DNA from: an uncultured Bulleidia sp.
GTDB taxonomy: Bacteria > Bacillota_I > Bacilli_A > Erysipelotrichales > Erysipelotrichaceae
Reading direction: 5' to 3'
Assembly: GCA_963557245.1 (NCBI GenBank)
Contig: CAUWDF010000001.1
Coordinates: 1 to 60,772, forward strand
Length of the DNA: 60,772 nucleotides
The position numbers and the translations under genes were made by a program. Position 1 is the stretch's first letter; every line of letters starts with the position of its first letter. A model generated the notes under the pieces. That model did not search any database and had not been told where the DNA came from. It saw nothing but the letters and a program-made list of their open reading frames with translations. Positions 11,025-45,769 of the stretch are shown here, piece after piece.

Positions 11025-11723
11025 TTAAAGTGGCTTTTTCTTCATTGTTCCATAATTACGAGGATATTCCGCAGGTGTTTTCTTCGCTTTACGATAGAAT
11101 AGATTGACTCTCGCATCTCCAGAGAACAAAGATACATCCTGTTCTTTTTCTAATACAGCACCCAATACATCTGTCGCATGTTTCGCTTCTACAGCTTCTT
11201 CATGTCCTTTCGATCCCTTCATAGCGATAAAAAGGCCAGTAGTCTGTACAAGTGGAAGAGTAAGCTCGGATAGGAGGCGCAGGTTCGCAACAGCTCTTGC
11301 TGTAACGACTTGGAAAGAACTGCGAGCTTTTGTGACAAATTCTTCCGCACGTTCATTCACGACTTGTATCTCTTTTAATCCAAGATCCTGAATAACTGCA
11401 TTTAAGAAATTACATCTTTTGCCAGTAGGTTCCACAAGTGTAATCTTGAGATCAGGGCGCACAATTTTCCATACAAGTCCTGGAAAACCAGCTCCAGATC
11501 CAATATCGGCAACCTTTCCACTTAATTCCTTAACGGATAATGGCAAAATACAATCATAGAAATGTTTTTCAAATACTTCTTCCTTTTCTGTGATTGCAGT
11601 CAGATTCATCTTTTCATTCCATTCGCGCAAAAGATCCGCATACCGAATCAATTGAGCGACCATCTCTTCAGAAAGAATGACACCGCATTCTTCACTCTTT
11701 TTTACTAATTCTTCAATTGTCAT
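11025..11723 (-). CDS. rsmG: 16S rRNA m7G527 methyltransferase
   Basis: WNEKMNLTAI, DIGSGAGFPG, VTARAVA. Confidence 0.97.
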   Translation of the reverse strand: MTIEELVKKSEECGVILSEEMVAQLIRYADLLREWNEKMNLTAITEKEEVFEKHFYDCILPLSVKELSGKVADIGSGAGFPGLVWKIVRPDLKITLVEPTGKRCNFLNAVIQDLGLKEIQVVNERAEEFVTKARSSFQVVTARAVANLRLLSELTLPLVQTTGLFIAMKGSKGHEEAVEAKHATDVLGAVLEKEQDVSLFSGDARVNLFYRKAKKTPAEYPRNYGTMKKKPL

Positions 11724-11787
11724 TCCTTCATCCTTCTCTTTCTTTAAAATCATAACACTCTCATTTTTATAATAAAAGATTAAAATA

Positions 11788-11888
11788 TGTGGAAAACTTT
11801 TTTGTCCACAATTTTTGATATAGAAAGTGCATGAATAAGCCCTTTTACACTATTAGGCTAAAGAAAGTGGATAAAATATTTATCCACT
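11788..11888. promoter_or_regulatory. DnaA-box cluster upstream of rsmG
   Basis: TGTGGAAAA (11788), TTGTCCACA (11802), AGTGGATAA (11866), TTATCCACT (11880), each one mismatch from TTATCCACA. Confidence 0.65.
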
Positions 11889-11899
11889 TATATAGGAAT

Positions 11900-12541
11900 T
11901 TAAAATGATTTAACTTCTTCTCCAATAATAAATTCAGCATGGGGCAGTGTCTCTACCCACTTGCAGAAAGCACGCCATTCTGGCAAACGATGATCTTTTC
12001 TCTGATGATAGATTGTTTTTAATGCACGATAATTTGTAGTCATTTTCGCTGTCAAACGGAATCCGGCAGGATTGGAATATAAGATTTCTAAGTATTTTTC
12101 ATTCGATTGCTTTGTCAGTTCATGAACATCGCCGCCCATTTCTTTACAAGCCGCAATTTCATCCTGTATTGCATTATATTCCTTTACTTTCTCTTTCATA
12201 ATTTCTACGATTCTAGAATCCGTATAAGGCATGTACGCGCCATCCAAATCAAACTTCGTAATACGATGCATCGTAGATTGGGAAGACACAAAATCAAGGA
12301 ACTTATAACGTTCCGCTTCAACCCAAGCTTTATTAGAGAATGTTAAATCAAACTGTACAACGATTCCTGTCATGAATTGATCATGACCACTACCGGTTGG
12401 ACAAGTTGCTAGAGCCATCGTTGATTTTGTAATCTCGGATGTGACTTTATTTAGATCAACGGCATAAGAATACTTCGCACCCTTTACCGCATCTTCAAAC
12501 CCATAAATATGGACATTGGATACTACATCCTGATAATTCAT
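11900..12541 (-). CDS. Divergent ThyX-like (flavin-dependent thymidylate synthase fold) protein
   Basis: GSGHDQF..IVVQFDL, ERYK....SSQSTMH and NPAGFRLTAKMTTNYRALKTIYHQRKDHRLPEW align with the ThyX motifs GH-S-FE, RHRx7S and LP..T.N.R.L....R....Q.E. Confidence 0.7.
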   Translation of the reverse strand: MNYQDVVSNVHIYGFEDAVKGAKYSYAVDLNKVTSEITKSTMALATCPTGSGHDQFMTGIVVQFDLTFSNKAWVEAERYKFLDFVSSQSTMHRITKFDLDGAYMPYTDSRIVEIMKEKVKEYNAIQDEIAACKEMGGDVHELTKQSNEKYLEILYSNPAGFRLTAKMTTNYRALKTIYHQRKDHRLPEWRAFCKWVETLPHAEFIIGEEVKSF

Positions 12542-14418
12542 TTATTCAATCCCTTTCCTTGTTTAACCGCAATAGCTAGTACGGCAAGATCGGCCGGATT
12601 GACACCGGATATACGACTTGCCTGTCCCATTGTGGCAGGTTTATATTTCATGAGCTTCTGTCTACCTTCAATGGATAGATTATCGACTTCATCATAATTA
12701 AAATCGACACCAAGTTTGATTTCTTCCATAGACTTCAGCTTTTCCGCTTCTCTCTTTGCTTTTTCAATATAGCCAGCATATTTTAGATCAATATCTGTCT
12801 TGTTCGCTATAAAAGAATCACATGTCTCATCGATACATGCAAATAACTTTTCTGTTTCTACTTTTGGACGACGTACAAGATCTAGACCATTCAAACCACG
12901 ATGTCCATTTTCTTCATAACCACAAGAGAGAAGATAGTCATGAACTTTTGGATCATCTGCTTCAAAAGTTGTTGCCTTAAGCTGTTCTTTTGTATGCTGA
13001 AGAGCTTTTTGTTTTTCATCAAACATCTCCATACGTTCATCACTGATAAGACCTGCATTACGACCAATATGAATCAAGCGCTCTTCGGCATTATCATGAC
13101 GTAAAAGGAGACGGAATTCAGCGCGGCTTGTTAGCAAACGATATGGTTCTAATGTACCCTTTGCCGTTAAGTCGTCTGTCATGACACCGATATACGCTTC
13201 ATCTCTTCCTAATACAATCTGTTCTTTTCCATCTAACTTTAAAGAAGCGTTAATACCTGCCATCATACCTTGTCCAGCTGCTTCTTCATAGCCAGAAGTA
13301 CCATTAACCTGACCAGCTGTATATAAATTTTTTATAATTTTAGATTCATATGTTGGCTTCATTTGTATTGGTAAGATTGCATCATATTCAATAGCATATG
13401 CATATTTCTTGATGATACTGTTCTCGAAACCAGGTAAAGAATGTACCATTTTTTCTTGAATATCTCTTGGTAAAGAAGTAGAGAAACCTTGTACATATGT
13501 TGTATCCATAGAAAGAGATTCTGGTTCTAAGAATAAGAGATGACGTGGTTTATCTTTAAAACGTACTAATTTATCTTCAATGGAAGGACAATAACGAGGT
13601 CCTACGCCTTTTACCACACCCGAATACATAGAAGAACGATTCAGATTCGACAGTATCAGCTCATGTGTTTCTGGTGTTGTATAGGTTAAGTAACATGGAA
13701 CCTGTTGTTCAAATGGTAATACATCTTCTGATCTTGTTATTTCTGAGAAACGTAAAAAACCTTCACTACCAGGTTCATACTTTGTCTTAGAAAAATCAAT
13801 CGAAGATGTGATTACACGAGGTGGTGTTCCCGTCTTTAAACGGAACGTTTCCAAACCAAGTTCACGTAAAGAGGCTGAAAGATCATTTGTAGTCTCTTCC
13901 ATATCTGGACCACCTTCACATACTTCATCGGAAATCATATTGACACCAGCCATATAAGTACCTGTTGTTAAAATAACAATCTCACAAGATAAGAAAGACC
14001 CATCTTTTAAAGTAACACCTGTAATCTTATGATTCTTAGCATGAATACGAACAGCCATTCCTTCTATGACTGTTAGATTTTCTTGATGCAAACATACATC
14101 TTGCATCATCTTTTTATAAGCAATTTTATCCGACTGGACACGAAGCGCACGTACGCCCGGTCCTTTCGCACTGTTCAACATCTTAAACTGTAGAGCAGTA
14201 TGATCGGCTGTAATCGGCATTTGACCACCTAAAGCATCCAATTCACGAACAACAATTCCCTTTGCCGGTCCACCTACAGAAGGATTACATGGCATTTTAC
14301 CGATATTACGAATTGATAATGTCAAAAGACATGTTTTTTTCTTTGTACGAGCGGCTGCGAGTGCTGCTTCAATACCAGCATGGCCGCCTCCAATAACGAT
14401 GATATCAAAATCACGCAT
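12538..14418 (-). CDS. mnmG: tRNA U34 carboxymethylaminomethyl modification enzyme MnmG/GidA
   Basis: GGGHAGIEAA, MPCNPSVGG, GPRYCPSIEDK, GTSGYEEAAGQG. Confidence 0.99.
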   Translation of the reverse strand: MRDFDIIVIGGGHAGIEAALAAARTKKKTCLLTLSIRNIGKMPCNPSVGGPAKGIVVRELDALGGQMPITADHTALQFKMLNSAKGPGVRALRVQSDKIAYKKMMQDVCLHQENLTVIEGMAVRIHAKNHKITGVTLKDGSFLSCEIVILTTGTYMAGVNMISDEVCEGGPDMEETTNDLSASLRELGLETFRLKTGTPPRVITSSIDFSKTKYEPGSEGFLRFSEITRSEDVLPFEQQVPCYLTYTTPETHELILSNLNRSSMYSGVVKGVGPRYCPSIEDKLVRFKDKPRHLLFLEPESLSMDTTYVQGFSTSLPRDIQEKMVHSLPGFENSIIKKYAYAIEYDAILPIQMKPTYESKIIKNLYTAGQVNGTSGYEEAAGQGMMAGINASLKLDGKEQIVLGRDEAYIGVMTDDLTAKGTLEPYRLLTSRAEFRLLLRHDNAEERLIHIGRNAGLISDERMEMFDEKQKALQHTKEQLKATTFEADDPKVHDYLLSCGYEENGHRGLNGLDLVRRPKVETEKLFACIDETCDSFIANKTDIDLKYAGYIEKAKREAEKLKSMEEIKLGVDFNYDEVDNLSIEGRQKLMKYKPATMGQASRISGVNPADLAVLAIAVKQGKGLNK

Positions 14419-15310
14419 GATTAATTTGTTCCACCAGTTCTTTCACTTCCAGATCCTCTTTATCACTTATAATGGTAAAGATAACTTTTTTTTCAAAATT
14501 CAGTTTCTTTGTCCAATATTTATATAAAAGGATCTTCCCATATAATTCTCGGATTTTTGCATCCCTATCATTTGTCTGATAACAGAGAGCGAACGCTACC
14601 TTCACTTTATAACGATCCATCATCATAATGTCGGTCTCCGAGCCAATAATGCGTTCCCATTTCGTATCTGTCAGCTTTTCCGTGATAAGTTTGCGACATC
14701 TGTCCTTTTCACGTTGGCTAAAGGAAGACTTACCACACAGTTCTCCTATCATGGCTAGTTTATGGCGCATGACATCTGCGCGGAATATATCATCTGGTGT
14801 ACGATTCGGATCTAATGACCATAAATCGATTCCATGTTTTCGTGCACATTCTAAAATCATTACTGTCACTTTTGAATCCGACCGATCCAAATAAATATAA
14901 CTCTCTAAATGAATCGGAAAATCAATTCCGAACTCTTGCGGATAGACTGGCGTTAAAAAGAATACCACATCTGTCAGATACAAACACCGCATCTGTTTTG
15001 GAATCTCACCTTTTGCGGCTTTGGCAATTGCATCCTCAAGCCTTTGCTTTGAAGAATATCCAGTCGATTCCCCATATTGCTTCCACATCTGATTCAAGGA
15101 AAGACACTTTGTAGAATCATAATGCGCATATCCCACAAGTCCTTTTTTCCTGCCCCGTATCGGACGTGAGTAAAAGAATAGAAGATCCCCTTTATGGAAA
15201 TCCGCTATTTTTCTTTTACTTGCTAAACGCCAGAAAAGGATTGTGCGATTGCGACACAATCTATGATATTCCAGCATTTCTTCATCCGTTACGTAAGCTA
15301 TTGAACTCAT
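14411..15310 (-). CDS. Hypothetical protein: N-terminal PUA/EVE-like domain, C-terminal possibly degenerate PD-(D/E)xK-like domain
   Basis: AYVTD..FW..GDLLFFY..GLVGYAHY..MWKQYG...G..CLYLTDVVFF pattern; C-terminal IRELYGKILLY. Confidence 0.55.
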   Translation of the reverse strand: MSSIAYVTDEEMLEYHRLCRNRTILFWRLASKRKIADFHKGDLLFFYSRPIRGRKKGLVGYAHYDSTKCLSLNQMWKQYGESTGYSSKQRLEDAIAKAAKGEIPKQMRCLYLTDVVFFLTPVYPQEFGIDFPIHLESYIYLDRSDSKVTVMILECARKHGIDLWSLDPNRTPDDIFRADVMRHKLAMIGELCGKSSFSQREKDRCRKLITEKLTDTKWERIIGSETDIMMMDRYKVKVAFALCYQTNDRDAKIRELYGKILLYKYWTKKLNFEKKVIFTIISDKEDLEVKELVEQINHA

Positions 15311-15319
15311 TTTCTATCC

Positions 15320-16984
15320 TTAAAATAATCCGTATGTTTCGCCGTTTTCATCTACACCCATATGGATGGCTGCAGGTTCTTTTGGAAGACCCGGCATAGT
15401 CATAATATTTCCTGTATAAGCAACTGCAAATCCTGCACCTGCAGAAATTGTCAGATCTCTTACATGAATTGTAAATCCTTCTGGACGGCCCTTGATTTTA
15501 GCATCGTCTGTAAGGGAATTTGGTGTCTTAGCCATGCAAATTGGCAAGTTGTCCCAATGATTCTTCTTAAATACTTCAATCTTTTCTTTTGCAAGATCAG
15601 AGAATTCAACTCCATCTGCACCATAAATTTCTTTGGCGATTGTATTAATCTTTTCTTCAATGGAAAGATTGACATCATATAAAGGATGGAAAGCATTTGC
15701 CTGGTCACAAGCATCTAATACGAGATTTGTAAGATTCTTCATACCAGCGCCACCATTTGCCCATCCATCGGCCAGAGCGACTGGATGACCAGCTTCTTTA
15801 CACCAATTCATTAAAGCATCTACTTCCGCTGGCGTATCCGTTGCGAACTTATTAATTGCAATGACATATGGAAGTCCAAACTTTTGAATAGATTCTACAT
15901 GTCTCTGTAAGTTTGCTGCACCCTTTAATAATGCTTCTACATTTTCTTCCCCGAGATTTTCTTCTACACCACCATGCATCTTTAAGGCACGGATTGTGGC
16001 AACGATAACAACAGCATTTGGATGTAATCCTGCTGCACGACACTTAATATCCAAGAATTTTTCAGCACCTAAATCAGCACCAAATCCTGCTTCTGTCACA
16101 ACATACTCAGACAACTTCAACGCAGTCTTTGTAGCAATTACTGAGTTACAGCCATGCGCAATATTTGCGAATGGTCCACCATGGATAAAGACTGGAGTAT
16201 GTTCCAGTGTCTGTACGAGGTTTGGCTTTAAAGCCTCCTTCATTAAGACTGTAGCCGCTCCATCTGCCTGAATATCCTTTACTGTAACTGGCTTATCGTC
16301 ATATGTATAAGCTACGACACACTTGCCGATTCTTTCATGGAAGTCTTTTAAATCATCCGAAAGACAAAGAATCGCCATAACTTCTGTTGCAACTGTAATA
16401 ACAAATCCATCTTTTCTTTCGACACCATTTGTCTTCTTATCCTGTGCAATTGTAATGGAACGAAGAGTACGGTCATTCATATCCATACATCTCTTCCATA
16501 CAACCTTTTCTGGATCAATATTTAATGGATTTCCCTGATAAATCGAATTATCTAGAATCGCTGCAATCAGATTATTTACGGAAGTGATTGCATGCATATC
16601 CCCTGTAAAATGAAGATTGATTGATTCCATTGGGATGACCTGAGCATAGCCACCGCCAGTAGCGCCACCTTTCAGACCAAATACAGGTCCAAGAGATGGT
16701 TCGCGAAGACATGCCATAACTTTCTTACCTGCTCTTGCAAGTCCATCCGCAAGACCAATTGTAGTTGTTGATTTACCTTCACCTGCTTTTGTTGGATTGA
16801 TTGCTGTAACAAGGATCAATTTGCCATCTTCTTTATCCTTTAAAGAACGATATAATTCTGGGCTAACTTTTGCTTTATCATTTCCATACATTTCAAGATA
16901 AGATTCCGCAATTCCTGCACGTTCGGCAATCTTGCGAATATCTTCCATTTTTGCATCCTGAGCAATTTTGAGGTCTGTGTTCAT
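15320..16984 (-). CDS. fhs: Formate--tetrahydrofolate ligase
   Basis: TKAGEGKSTT, GLKGGATGGG, HGGPFANIAHGCNS, TMPGLP. Confidence 0.99.
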   Translation of the reverse strand: MNTDLKIAQDAKMEDIRKIAERAGIAESYLEMYGNDKAKVSPELYRSLKDKEDGKLILVTAINPTKAGEGKSTTTIGLADGLARAGKKVMACLREPSLGPVFGLKGGATGGGYAQVIPMESINLHFTGDMHAITSVNNLIAAILDNSIYQGNPLNIDPEKVVWKRCMDMNDRTLRSITIAQDKKTNGVERKDGFVITVATEVMAILCLSDDLKDFHERIGKCVVAYTYDDKPVTVKDIQADGAATVLMKEALKPNLVQTLEHTPVFIHGGPFANIAHGCNSVIATKTALKLSEYVVTEAGFGADLGAEKFLDIKCRAAGLHPNAVVIVATIRALKMHGGVEENLGEENVEALLKGAANLQRHVESIQKFGLPYVIAINKFATDTPAEVDALMNWCKEAGHPVALADGWANGGAGMKNLTNLVLDACDQANAFHPLYDVNLSIEEKINTIAKEIYGADGVEFSDLAKEKIEVFKKNHWDNLPICMAKTPNSLTDDAKIKGRPEGFTIHVRDLTISAGAGFAVAYTGNIMTMPGLPKEPAAIHMGVDENGETYGLF

Positions 16985-20488: not shown

Positions 20489-21286
20489 TCAGCGAATACG
20501 TCTTGGATAACGATGTTCAAATTCACGAACCACTCCCGTAAGATGTGCATCCAAAAAATCAAAAGCACGGTTCTCTAGTTCTTGTGGAATATCTTCATAC
20601 GCCGCCGCAATACCACCTGCAATATTTGCAATCGTATCACTATCCCCTCCAATCGAGATCGCACAACGAATAACCTGTTCGAAGTTCGTTCCTTCTATAA
20701 ATGCTTCTAAAGCTTCTGGAACAGATCCATCACACGAAACATCAAACGTATATGTATGACGAATTTCATCTAATGTAAAGGAAGGATTTAAATCATGCAT
20801 TTTCCAAAATTCACGTAATTCTTCTTTTGAATTGCCATGTCTAGCCAAAAATATTGTTCCTGCTATTGCTTTTGCAGAATTAATTGCATCTGGATGGTTA
20901 TGCGTAACTTCAGTCACTTTTTCAGCCATCCATAATGCATCTTGTAAAGTATCTGCTGCATATCCACAAGGAGATACTCGCATTGCCGCACCATTTCCAT
21001 AACTATTATAAGGCTCATGTTGCGGAGAAAATAACCAATCAAAGAATTTTCCGCCATACCCTGCATTTGGATACATTTTTCCATATTCAACCATAGAATG
21101 TACAGCGTAACGGCCTAAGTCTCCCCCACTCGTTTTATAATGCATTACAGCTTCAGCAATCGCACACGTCATGATGGTATCATCCGTAAAAGTACAGTTA
21201 TCTGACATCATAACAAAGTCCTTCGAACGCTGATTATGAAACTCATAAATAGAACCAGCAATATCACCTATAATTGCACCTAACAT
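20489..21286 (-). CDS. ADP-ribosylglycohydrolase (DraG/ARH family)
   Basis: GAIIGDIAGS, FTDDT, SYGNGAAMR, GGDSDT. Confidence 0.93.
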   Translation of the reverse strand: MLGAIIGDIAGSIYEFHNQRSKDFVMMSDNCTFTDDTIMTCAIAEAVMHYKTSGGDLGRYAVHSMVEYGKMYPNAGYGGKFFDWLFSPQHEPYNSYGNGAAMRVSPCGYAADTLQDALWMAEKVTEVTHNHPDAINSAKAIAGTIFLARHGNSKEELREFWKMHDLNPSFTLDEIRHTYTFDVSCDGSVPEALEAFIEGTNFEQVIRCAISIGGDSDTIANIAGGIAAAYEDIPQELENRAFDFLDAHLTGVVREFEHRYPRRIR

Positions 21287-30139: not shown

Positions 30140-30279
30140 CTTTTATTAATAATATATATTTATTAAGTCTTATTGTTATTAGAACTGTGGGAATTGTGGA
30201 AAACTTTTTAAAAAGCTTTATTTATCCACAAATCCAAGTGCTTTTATGCGTTGAAATGTGGTGGACAAATTTGTGGAAA
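30140..30279. other. oriC unwinding region (dnaA-dnaN intergenic): DnaA boxes, DnaA-trio-like tract, AT-rich segment
   Basis: Perfect TTATCCACA at 30222; tandem boxes at 30186-30203 followed on the minus strand by CTA-ATA-ACA-ATA-AGA and an AT-rich run, as in the Bacillus basal unwinding system. Confidence 0.85.
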
Positions 30280-31650
30280 TCAGTTTGTTAACTGCTTTTC
30301 TAGATCATTGACCGCATTTGCATAAGCTGGATCCTTCTTAATTTGCTTCTCTACTTTCGCGCATGCTGAGATGATTGTAGAGTGGTCACGCCCTCCAAAT
30401 TCATCTCCTATCTTAATATACGGCAAATCGAGTAATTTTCGGCATAAATAAATCGAAATATGTCTCGCATTTGCAATATTCTTTGTTCGAGTTTTTGAAG
30501 TTATTTGTTGTTTTGTCAGTCCATAGTAGTCCGCTACCGTTTTAATAATCTTTTTCGGTGAAAGACCAGTCTTATCGGAAACGACAGCATGACTCTTTAA
30601 GGCATTCATAACAGTCTCAAACTTGATACAACCTCCATCTGGTTGGAATTCGATTGCATAGAACAGGACACGATTCCATGCCCCTTCTAGATCTCGTACA
30701 TTACCAGAGAAGTTAGAGGCGATATAATTCAGACCTTCATCATCGACATCATCAATACCATATCCATTCTGACGTATCTTCATCTGTAAAATAGCAAGTG
30801 AAGTTTCAAATTCAGGTGAGTCAATACCAACGGAAAGCCCACTCGAGAAACGAGAAATCAGACGATCTTCCAGTCCTTTGATTTCGCGTGGTTGCCGATC
30901 CGATGCAATACATACCTGTTTTCGGTTATTGACCAGCTCATTATATATAGTAAAGAAGATCTCATGAGATTTTTCTTTACCAGCAAGGAACTGGATATCA
31001 TCAACTAAGAATAAATCGATATTATACATATATTGTTTAAAGGCTTCGATCTTATTCTCACGTATGGCATTGACAACGGTCTCAACGAATTTTAAGGACT
31101 CAGTATAGTAAACCTTCTTCGTTGGATCGTTTTTTAATACATAATTGGCAATTGCCATTAATAGATGTGTCTTACCCAGGCCAGAATTACCATATATAAA
31201 TAAAGGATTGAAGAATTTACCAGGATTTAGAGCACAAGCAAGAGCGGCAGCTTGGGATTCACGGTTACAGTCGCCTACTACAAAATTATCGAAAGTACGC
31301 TCTTTTTGGATTGGCATAGATTGAAAATCCGTGTCGTTGAGCGGTACAGGTTTAATAGGGACAGTACGATTGGAAAGTTCCGCTGGCTGACATATTTCAA
31401 GCATGAGTGAGTTATTAAGGTCCAGCACGGTTACAAAAGCTTCCGATATCATATCCGACTGCGATTGCAAGATAGATTTCGAAATAATATTTGGCGCAGA
31501 TATAACTGCTTTTTCTTCGGACAATTCATAGATACTACAAGGTTTATAGAAGTTATCTATAATTTCCGGTTCTAGGTTCTTGTTCGTCAGAAGATAATGG
31601 AGAACCTTAGTCCATACTTCTGATAGGTATTGATCTTTAGTAAACGACAT
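30280..31650 (-). CDS. dnaA: Chromosomal replication initiator DnaA
   Basis: NPLFIYGNSGLGKTHL, DDIQF, GGRDHSTI. Confidence 0.99.
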   Translation of the reverse strand: MSFTKDQYLSEVWTKVLHYLLTNKNLEPEIIDNFYKPCSIYELSEEKAVISAPNIISKSILQSQSDMISEAFVTVLDLNNSLMLEICQPAELSNRTVPIKPVPLNDTDFQSMPIQKERTFDNFVVGDCNRESQAAALACALNPGKFFNPLFIYGNSGLGKTHLLMAIANYVLKNDPTKKVYYTESLKFVETVVNAIRENKIEAFKQYMYNIDLFLVDDIQFLAGKEKSHEIFFTIYNELVNNRKQVCIASDRQPREIKGLEDRLISRFSSGLSVGIDSPEFETSLAILQMKIRQNGYGIDDVDDEGLNYIASNFSGNVRDLEGAWNRVLFYAIEFQPDGGCIKFETVMNALKSHAVVSDKTGLSPKKIIKTVADYYGLTKQQITSKTRTKNIANARHISIYLCRKLLDLPYIKIGDEFGGRDHSTIISACAKVEKQIKKDPAYANAVNDLEKQLTN

Positions 31651-31719
31651 GAATATTTACCTCTAATTTTTTTATATTTGCATGGTATATTGTAGGGTTC
31701 ATTTAGTGTAAAATCTACA

Positions 31720-32165
31720 TAAAAATTGTTGATAACTTTTTTCTCCACACATCCACAATTTACAATATATAGCATGAATATGCTGATTATTTGTGTTTTC
31801 CACACTTTTCCACATCTTTAGTATAGTGGAAAAAATGTGGATTAGTTTTACACATTGGGGAAAAGTTGTGATTTTGTTGAAAAAGTCATAAATGTAAGAA
31901 TGTAATTAACAGTTATAAACAATCGCAAAAAGGCTTTATTAAGCAATTATGCGAGTTTCCCACAGTTTTCCACAGTTGTGGAAAACTTGTTTGTAAACAC
32001 TGTGGTTTTCATGTTGATAAGTCGGTGGTTTTCATAATTTTTCCAACAGTCTGAAATTCACGATTCTCAACAGTACTTTTAAAAAATACTATAAATTAGC
32101 GGTTTTTTGAATAAATGTGGAAAACTTTAGGGATTTTTACTTATTTTAGTGATTGTTGATAGTTT
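31720..32165. other. oriC DnaA-box array upstream of dnaA
   Basis: TTTTCCACA/TGTGGAAAA at 31796, 31806, 31966, 31977 and 32116; TGTGGATTA at 31836; TTTCCCACA at 31956; several TGTTGATAA. Confidence 0.88.
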
Positions 32166-44799: not shown

Positions 44800-45139
44800 A
44801 AATTGGATAGCATATTATTTCGATGCATTGCAGTTCTCTGCTATGCTGTAATGCAAACGTCTTCCGTTATACACATAGAATGCGTTCATGATTTCGATTC
44901 TTCGTTTTTAAATATTGTATAAGTCTATATGAATTGATCTTGTTTTTTTGGCAAATGTATGTGTAGATAGCCCTTAAGGGTATGGTAGAGCCACTGACTT
45001 GTTCGGTGGCTTTCTTCGTTATTTCATTTTTATAATATTTCTAATTCAGGAAAGATATAGGATAAAACTTGTGAATAGGTAAAGTATCCCTTTGGATATC
45101 TTGAGAATGAATGCGGATATTCATGTTATAATTATGACC

Positions 45140-45769
45140 ATGAAAAAAGGGTTATTTATAACATTTGAAGGACCTGACGGAAGTGGTAAGACAACGGTTT
45201 CTACCAAAGTTACCGAACGTTTGAAACAAGAAGGCTATGCCGTCAGTTATACAAGAGAACCAGGTGGTTCTTATATTGCAGAACAAATCCGTAATGTGAT
45301 TTTGGATCCTAAGAATACTGATATGGATCCTCGTACAGAGGCTTTGTTATATGCGGCATCTCGTCGTCAGCATCTAACAGATATTGTATTGCCTCAAATT
45401 GAAAAAGGAGTAACAGTCATATCGGATCGTTTTATTGATTCTTCTCTTGCTTATCAAGGATATGGAAGAGAAATTGGAGAAGAAGAAGTATTTGCTATCA
45501 ATGCGTTTGCAATTGAAGGACATATGCCAGATTGTACGATCTTCTTAAATATTGATGCCGAGCTAGGCTTAGAAAGAATCCATCAGAATCGCGATTATCT
45601 CGATCGTCTTGATTTAGAAAGCAAAGAGTTTCACGATCGCGTTTACAATGGATATCAGAAAGTTATCCAGAAGTATAGCGATCGAATGGTAATCGTGGAT
45701 GCATCGAAAGATCTAGAAGAGGTCTGTGAAGCATGTTACAACATTTTGAAAGGACTATTGGATGATTAA
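45140..45769 (+). CDS. tmk: Thymidylate kinase
   Basis: FITFEGPDGSGKTT, TREPGG, SDRFIDSSLAYQG. Confidence 0.98.
   Translation: MKKGLFITFEGPDGSGKTTVSTKVTERLKQEGYAVSYTREPGGSYIAEQIRNVILDPKNTDMDPRTEALLYAASRRQHLTDIVLPQIEKGVTVISDRFIDSSLAYQGYGREIGEEEVFAINAFAIEGHMPDCTIFLNIDAELGLERIHQNRDYLDRLDLESKEFHDRVYNGYQKVIQKYSDRMVIVDASKDLEEVCEACYNILKGLLDD

Follow-up and report, generated by a model that had tools for sequence, protein, structure and literature searches.

A divergent protein of predicted ThyX fold from the phrog_6721 family as the probable sole de novo thymidylate synthase of an uncultured Bulleidia

The thymidylate synthase ThyA yields dihydrofolate, so that dihydrofolate reductase (DHFR) is required, while the flavin-dependent thymidylate synthase (FDTS) ThyX releases tetrahydrofolate (THF), as set out in passages of PMC6514825 and PMC1971073. 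For ThyX, it has been proposed that Tyr91 is the general acid, made more acidic by Arg90, and the S88A, R90A and Y91A variants are slow in using the flavin carbinolamine (parts of PMC8316439 and PMC11940539). Bacteria without thyA and thyX are assumed, in the section of PMC1971073 that treats them, to depend on thymidine salvage. Here we describe a gene in a 60,772-nucleotide stretch of an uncultured Bulleidia sp. (assembly GCA_963557245.1, contig CAUWDF010000001.1, positions 1-60,772, forward strand), hereafter the window. The gene encodes a divergent 213-aa protein with a predicted ThyX fold, on which the bacterium very probably depends for all of its de novo thymidylate synthesis. An earlier note on this DNA, made from the letters alone, had suggested an alternative thymidylate synthase; this agrees with a match of the predicted structure to ThyX, the lack of thyA and thyX in the genome, a near-perfect anti-correlation with thyA in four bacterial families, and a gene context in relatives that includes the slot of thyA and a neighborhood of folD and deoxycytidine monophosphate (dCMP) deaminase.

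The protein matches phrog_6721, a PHROG family of unknown function (E 3e-49). Its match to Pfam Thy1 (PF02511; E 0.027, 14.7 bits) lies below the gathering cut-off of 24.8, no thyX or other relevant NCBIfam model matches it, and neither does PF00303 (ThyA) or PF01134 (GIDA; TrmFO/MnmG type). Among 110 relatives, 24 have Thy1 matches at E up to 0.1, the best at 5e-7. PDB sequence searches, whether started from the protein itself or from the profile of one or the other subfamily, recovered no ThyX, which accounts for the family having gone unannotated. Relatives make up 7999 of the 8000 scored candidates, with 2415 representatives at 50% identity. They include a second subfamily, B, which the earlier note did not mention; it occurs in Clostridia, is ~30% identical to subfamily A, to which the window's protein belongs, and matched phrog_6721 in 14 of 14 tested members. 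A phrog_6721 signal also appeared in the control genome of Methanosarcina acetivorans. Some homologues are long (P0132, P0190, P0205, P0252, P0122): in four, an insert that keeps the frame stands ahead of the GH motif and, by our reading, resembles an HNH homing endonuclease, and P0122 contains two copies of the domain. Full-text searching, whose coverage stops short of subscription journals and bioRxiv supplements, found no published description of the family. The passage of PMC2826268 that leaves out 35 genomes without a stringent thyA or thyX match names no such family.

The predicted structure places the protein among ThyX enzymes. An AlphaFold2 model built on the 110-sequence alignment has a predicted local distance difference test score (pLDDT) of 96.6 and a predicted template modeling score of 0.89. 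Foldseek, suggested earlier as a check on the fold, returned ThyX for every one of the matches listed (best E 1.5e-6). In an independent search of 48,161 chains, only five reached Z ≥ 8, all of the ThyX family (Z 10.5-12.9). The top one is Helicobacter pylori ThyX (3ah5, Z 12.9, root-mean-square deviation 2.5 Å across 174 residues); the other four are the Thermotoga maritima and Mycobacterium tuberculosis enzymes, PolB (4p5a, Z 11.1) and 4fzb. The highest unrelated chain, a helical fragment, reached Z 7.2. A subfamily B model (pLDDT 94.4) behaved likewise, with ThyX at Z 14.1 versus 5.8 for the next unrelated chain. The protein is thus predicted to have the ThyX alpha/beta fold. In profile alignments to ThyX, the narrow subfamily B profile alone gave 3% probability and a mixed profile 87%.

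To map the active site, we made a profile alignment with 19 ThyX proteins that are Pfam-positive (probability 89%, E 2e-6) and linked it onward to the chains from M. tuberculosis and T. maritima, with residue roles taken from parts of PMC6514825, PMC8316439 and PMC11940539. The open reading frame (ORF) and the three motifs quoted earlier are all present as described: GSGHDQF at residues 50-56, ERYKFLDFVSSQSTMH at 77-92 and TNYRALKTIYHQRKDHRLPEW at 169-189 (Table 1). In this alignment, Arg78 pairs with the first Arg of the ThyX motif, Ser89 with Ser88, Met91-His92 with Arg90-Tyr91, and Arg181 with Arg174. These positions are highly conserved in the 110 subfamily A sequences: H53 in 99, R78 in 106, Y79 in 108, S89 in 109, M91 in 101, H92 in 102, and both R181 and H184 in 107. 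Position 80 is His in 75, Lys in 14 and Arg in 7. The change from RHRx7S to RYK-x8-S that had been noted is correct for the window's protein (R78-Y79-K80, eight residues, S89), but the consensus in subfamily A is RYH-x8-S. The replacement of Arg90-Tyr91 by Met-His, which had not been noted, is more telling: SxMH is present in all 239 locus-derived members. Subfamily B has TYK-x8-S and further invariant basic residues (R20, K61, R64, K80, R161), and the family has a new conserved C-terminal motif, HRLxEW or HKLxEW.

Some Pfam-positive ThyX variants (L313-L325, L329-L330) also lack RHR and have a THIGG-type or an SxxLQY-type loop; among the latter, some lie beside a dUTPase gene and four copies occur in one genome (G488). 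Judged by these sequences, the ThyX loop is more variable than the textbook motif. Elsewhere, one 512-aa frame (L089/L092, G247:C5) holds two Thy1 domains in tandem.

The host genome (97.6% complete) has no match to thyA (PF00303) or Thy1. It encodes dCMP deaminase, a dUTPase-like protein, FolD (contig C110) and NrdD, found by tblastn with proteins from other loci, as well as Fhs, Tmk and TrmFO. The pathway to deoxythymidine monophosphate (dTMP) is complete except for the synthase, and salvage is possible. We did not find glyA in this genome (G000), and it is present in 14 of 14 control genomes; formate is then the likely source of methylene-THF, via Fhs and FolD.

We further investigated how the family is distributed relative to thyA and Thy1. 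Among 151 genomes of the bacterium's own family, filtered at 90% completeness, 58 carry the phrog_6721 family (35 subfamily A, 23 B), 96 thyA and 2 Thy1. The family is present in 54 of the 55 thyA-less genomes; both genes occur in 4 genomes and neither in 1, against ~37 and ~34 expected if they were independent. The sole genome with neither is a 380-contig draft. In a sample across the phylum (299 of 301 genomes scored, its 38 own-family genomes overlapping the first sample), a family of small-genome Bacilli (f9) has the phrog_6721 family in 20 of 26 genomes and thyA in 5, and another (f15) has them in 2 and 1 of 3, with no genome carrying both in either. Two genera, g118 and g119, each contain both states. 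In a Lachnospiraceae-type family (G414 family, 151 genomes), 28 carry the phrog_6721 family, 115 thyA and 24 Thy1, and the gene is found in 22 of the 24 genomes that lack both known enzymes. Fisher tests of exclusion gave 6e-35, 6e-19 and 9e-5, values that are overstated because kin are not independent; that exclusion recurs across separate gene lineages carries more weight. Neither thyA nor Thy1 was found in four named strains, Amedibacillus dolichus DSM 3991, Lacrimispora xylanisolvens DSM 3808, O. sinus DSM 17245 and [E.] hominis UGRO018; type strains are among those with a phrog_6721 gene as their only candidate synthase.

DHFR follows the same division. It is retained in 94 of the 96 thyA genomes versus 27 of 54 family-only genomes (13/33 with subfamily A, 14/21 with B), and was found in none of three congeners of the window's bacterium. 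This loss favors a product of the ThyX type. On the same ground we rejected an obligate coupling to DHFR, which the adjacency of folA in some relatives had brought to mind.

Gene context in relatives points to the same function. In f9, the gene lies directly behind folD in 19 of 19 loci, five of them in the order dCMP deaminase-folD-gene. For subfamily B we took the best 80 of 586 loci by likeness to the query, of which 72 were readable: folA is the next gene in 24, often followed by nfnA/nfnB-like and MATE genes. In the G414 family, 30 thyA loci were fetched, and folA is the next gene in 26 of the 28 that could be read. In those 24 loci, the subfamily B gene occupies the slot of thyA before folA. 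One locus (L336:4234-10831, genome G464) has an inverted thyA beside folA-gene-folA-nfnA-nfnB-MATE, with two DHFRs and two candidate synthases, and is likely a displacement intermediate in which replacement of thyA is in progress. In two others (L134, L263), folA is gone from the slot.

The immediate neighborhood of the window's gene raises another possibility, in part put forward in the earlier note, namely that the protein is a flavin- and folate-dependent C1 transferase acting on tRNA or another uracil substrate, with MnmG as partner. Of the 30 best own-family loci, which come from close relatives, 25 have mnmG directly upstream of the gene, with an ATGA overlap, and the ThyX fold includes PolB, a methylase of UMP and deoxyuridine monophosphate (dUMP). 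The link to mnmG is confined to one clade, and folD or folA adjoins the gene elsewhere; a functional tie to mnmG was rejected on this ground, and the adjacency likely reflects a host operon with no functional partnership. TrmFO is present in the genome, mnmG and trmFO being separate genes, and such a transferase would leave both the exclusion of thyA and the loss of DHFR unexplained. As it accounts for none of the exclusion, context or fold patterns, we set this proposal aside as very improbable.

The earlier note also had the family occurring mostly in phages. This is right for the top Atlas clusters, which are 71-100% viral, and 18 phage records match the family, labeled "hypothetical protein" where annotated; it leaves out that the family is also fixed as a chromosomal gene in many Bacillota genomes. 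A nucleotide-metabolism neighbor occurs in 33 of 80 viral loci (NrdD, NrdG, a deoxynucleoside monophosphate (dNMP) kinase and NT5C by Pfam, a dUTPase-like protein by BLAST), one of which we read as guanylate-kinase-like. No thyA or thyX is found among the neighbors in these 80 loci, and in five phage records none is found elsewhere in the record. The large phage radiation with its rebuilt loop could hint that some phage members, as distinct from the chromosomal ones, make a modified pyrimidine such as 5-hydroxymethyl-dUMP instead of dTMP, and a stalled flavin carbinolamine route could conceivably release a hydroxymethyl product. Yet the window's clade sits among phage members in the tree and shares their motifs, the frequent phage neighbors are NrdD/G, dNMP kinase and replication genes, and five phage records lack another thymidylate synthase. 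We consider a modified product highly unlikely.

In a 97-row tree, the window's clade forms a single group (Shimodaira-Hasegawa-like approximate likelihood ratio test, 92) within a 95-supported set with 26 viral rows, and f9, f15 and subfamily B are placed separately. Approximately unbiased (AU) tests, run on 55 of 239 rows of an unrooted tree with groups picked after viewing the first tree, rejected all chromosomal groups together (p-AU 1.6e-59, largely reflecting the A/B split) and weakly rejected uniting the Bacilli subfamily A copies (window clade with f9, p-AU 0.03; with f15, p-AU 0.019). This fits repeated exchange between phages and chromosomes, in which the family would have moved between the two and displaced thyA in several lineages. 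The "domestication" from phage proposed earlier is plausible. The chromosomal groups do not form one side of the tree, but an unrooted tree does not single out phages as donors.

By analogy with ThyX, we infer enzymatic activity, binding of flavin adenine dinucleotide (FAD), a tetramer and a role for His92 along the following lines. The protein would form a homotetramer with active sites where three subunits meet, as in ThyX, and bound FAD would be reduced by NAD(P)H. The resulting FADH- would accept a methylene group from methylene-THF, made from formate by Fhs and FolD. dUMP, supplied by dCMP deaminase and dUTPase and activated by Arg181, would attack the flavin carbinolamine, and the flavin would then reduce the methylene to give dTMP and THF, making DHFR dispensable. 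In the rebuilt loop, Ser89 would keep its place and His92 would likely replace Tyr as general acid; we read the paired swap as a compensated redesign because a His acting as acid needs no help from Arg. A protein that would work like ThyX yet fails the Pfam cut-off, RHRx7S and Arg90-Tyr91 is likely a variant, not a plain member, of that family.

Two sets of observations weigh against this reading, one from the active site and one from the genomes. The residue assignments come from a profile alignment (89% probability), as opposed to a structural superposition. RHRx7S is found in 0 of 239 locus-derived members. At the position of the FAD-contacting Arg190 of M. tuberculosis (172 here), subfamily A has Arg in 57 of 110 and Leu in 32; subfamily B has Glu there (76/77) and Thr at the first motif Arg (77/77). 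The R90A and Y91A variants of T. maritima ThyX are strongly impaired (part of PMC8316439), and therefore the family's loop must be compensated or its chemistry differs. Such a different chemistry would still make dTMP, with another flavin (flavin mononucleotide or a reduced flavin that is held loosely), a reductant other than NAD(P)H, or a flavin-free, DHFR-coupled folate hydride, and is in keeping with the eroded FAD contacts and with the frequent occurrence of subfamily B in operons with folA and nfnA/nfnB-like genes. Against this, half of the family-only genomes lack DHFR, which argues against dihydrofolate as a product; where thyA itself holds the slot (L280), it too is flanked by folA and nfnA, which are thus likely inherited; Pfam-positive ThyX proteins in the same genomes lack RHR as well; and the invariant basic residues of subfamily B could substitute for the lost contacts. 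We regard a chemistry unlike that of ThyX as unlikely.

As for the genomes, the window's bacterium carries tdk (thymidine kinase), so salvage could suffice, and it retains a lone folA with no thyA adjoining. In f7, 52 of 68 genomes lack the phrog_6721 family, thyA and Thy1, and thus loss of thyA does not require a phrog_6721 gene; f7 genomes are small and TGA-recoded, and are probably mycoplasmas. Carriers with another synthase also exist: 4 of 58 in the own family have thyA, 6 of 28 in the G414 family have thyA or Thy1 (two via short fragments), and Lacrimispora sp. HJ-01 has a separate Thy1. Many of the sampled genomes are drafts. Carriers might then be thymidine auxotrophs living on salvage, the gene being a phage relic, degenerate or unrelated, whose link to the loss of thyA reflects shared ancestry, and reliance on tdk in bacteria with neither enzyme is what the relevant part of PMC1971073 describes. 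A relic of this kind is hard to square with frames that are intact and strongly conserved (SxMH in 239/239), with an exclusion that recurs in four families, in separate gene lineages and within genera, with the retention of dCMP deaminase, and with in-slot replacement before folA. We give salvage with a relic gene very little weight, and retain a divergent synthase of predicted ThyX fold as the most likely reading of the gene.

A bolder formulation, which we offer tentatively and find doubtful, is that phrog_6721 constitutes a third functional class of thymidylate synthases, built on the scaffold of ThyX with a rebuilt SxMH loop and flavin site and a different chemistry, carried by phages and several times installed as the sole source of dTMP. 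If true, this class would be the sole dTMP source in more than a third of the sampled own-family genomes, in most of the small-genome Bacilli family f9 and in ~1/7 of the Lachnospiraceae-type family, all of which current annotation would misread as thymidine auxotrophs.

At the locus, mnmG, the ThyX-fold gene and rsmG follow one another (Table 1), and beyond them lie two genes that we read from their translations as ParB-like and one that we read as ParA-like. The gene, assigned to the core origin region in the earlier note, is ~18 kb away from dnaA and from the minimum of the GC skew. Its ATG overlaps the mnmG stop (ATGA), which suggests translational coupling with mnmG, and is preceded by a Shine-Dalgarno (SD)-like stretch. 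A promoter and terminator scan found no excess over shuffles (23 vs 19.9; 7 vs 4.1). In three gut metatranscriptome runs from one study, the region is covered as contigs with flat depth across genes and gaps, and as DNA carry-over is possible this provides no evidence of expression.

Table 1. Coordinates in the window of the ThyX-fold gene, its motifs and associated features
Feature	Position	Strand	Basis
ThyX-fold gene (213 aa; subfamily A of phrog_6721), predicted to encode a de novo thymidylate synthase	11900..12541	-	ORF, PHROG match, predicted fold
GSGHDQF; His53 aligns with ThyX folate-site His (T. maritima H53)	12374..12394	-	profile alignment
R78-Y79-K80...S89-T90-M91-H92, remodeled ThyX motif with the active-site loop, in which R78 and S89 are retained	12266..12310	-	profile alignment
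N170..W189 helix-loop; R181 aligns with dUMP-activating Arg (T. maritima R174, M. tuberculosis R199); H184 conserved	11975..12034	-	profile alignment
SD-like purine-rich stretch, within mnmG end, 8 nt upstream of ATG	12550..12560	-	sequence
mnmG (gidA), upstream neighbor	12538..14418	-	Pfam
rsmG (gidB), downstream neighbor	11025..11753	-	Pfam
fhs, formate-THF ligase	15320..16984	-	Pfam
tmk, dTMP kinase, pathway step downstream of dTMP synthesis	45092..45769	+	sequence search

Other features of the region were recorded alongside. Four DnaA-box-like 9-mers (one mismatch to TTATCCACA) lie within 101 bp (11788-11888), between the ThyX-fold gene and rsmG. In total, 33 occur in the window, mainly clustered at 30195-32124 around dnaA, and some relatives have one or two downstream of the gene. 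A 299-aa ORF between fhs and mnmG (14411-15310, minus strand) has no significant Pfam, PHROG or NCBIfam match. Also in the origin region, an ADP-ribosylglycohydrolase gene (20489-21286, minus strand) is flanked by serS and a tadA-like deaminase gene.

As a thymidylate synthase, the family would supply the missing step in 54 of the 55 own-family genomes without thyA and in 22 of the 24 G414-family genomes without either known enzyme. Metabolic models and the predicted effects of antifolates and fluoropyrimidines on the gut community would need revision for carrier taxa, and a large phage family presently listed as of unknown function would gain an annotation. The mechanism of ThyX is debated, and an entire family without the Arg90-Tyr91 pair would also provide a test of it made by nature.

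Compared with known systems, the protein most resembles ThyX/FDTS (PF02511; H. pylori 3ah5, T. maritima TM0449, M. tuberculosis 2af6), with which it shares a fold that is predicted to extend along the entire chain (Z 11-13), the aligned H53, R78 (in subfamily A), S89 and R181, the exclusion of thyA and the frequent loss of DHFR. It differs in its identity of 10-16%, its score below the Pfam cut-off, its lack of an NCBIfam match, and the family's RYH-x8-S (A) or TYK-x8-S (B), Met-His and HRLxEW/HKLxEW. PolB of Streptomyces cacaoi comes from an antibiotic gene cluster. Its fold is alike (4p5a) and its scaffold accepts other uracil nucleotides; unlike the phrog_6721 family, which would replace a housekeeping enzyme, PolB is a Pfam-detectable relative of ThyX. 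The reaction proposed here is also that of ThyA (PF00303), which occupies the same slot before folA in the G414 family, but its fold is unrelated and its genomes retain DHFR (94/96), which family-only genomes often lack (27/54 keep it). Within PHROG, phrog_6721 takes in the window's protein and each of the 14 subfamily B members tested; that resource assigns it no function, and we here propose that of thymidylate synthase.
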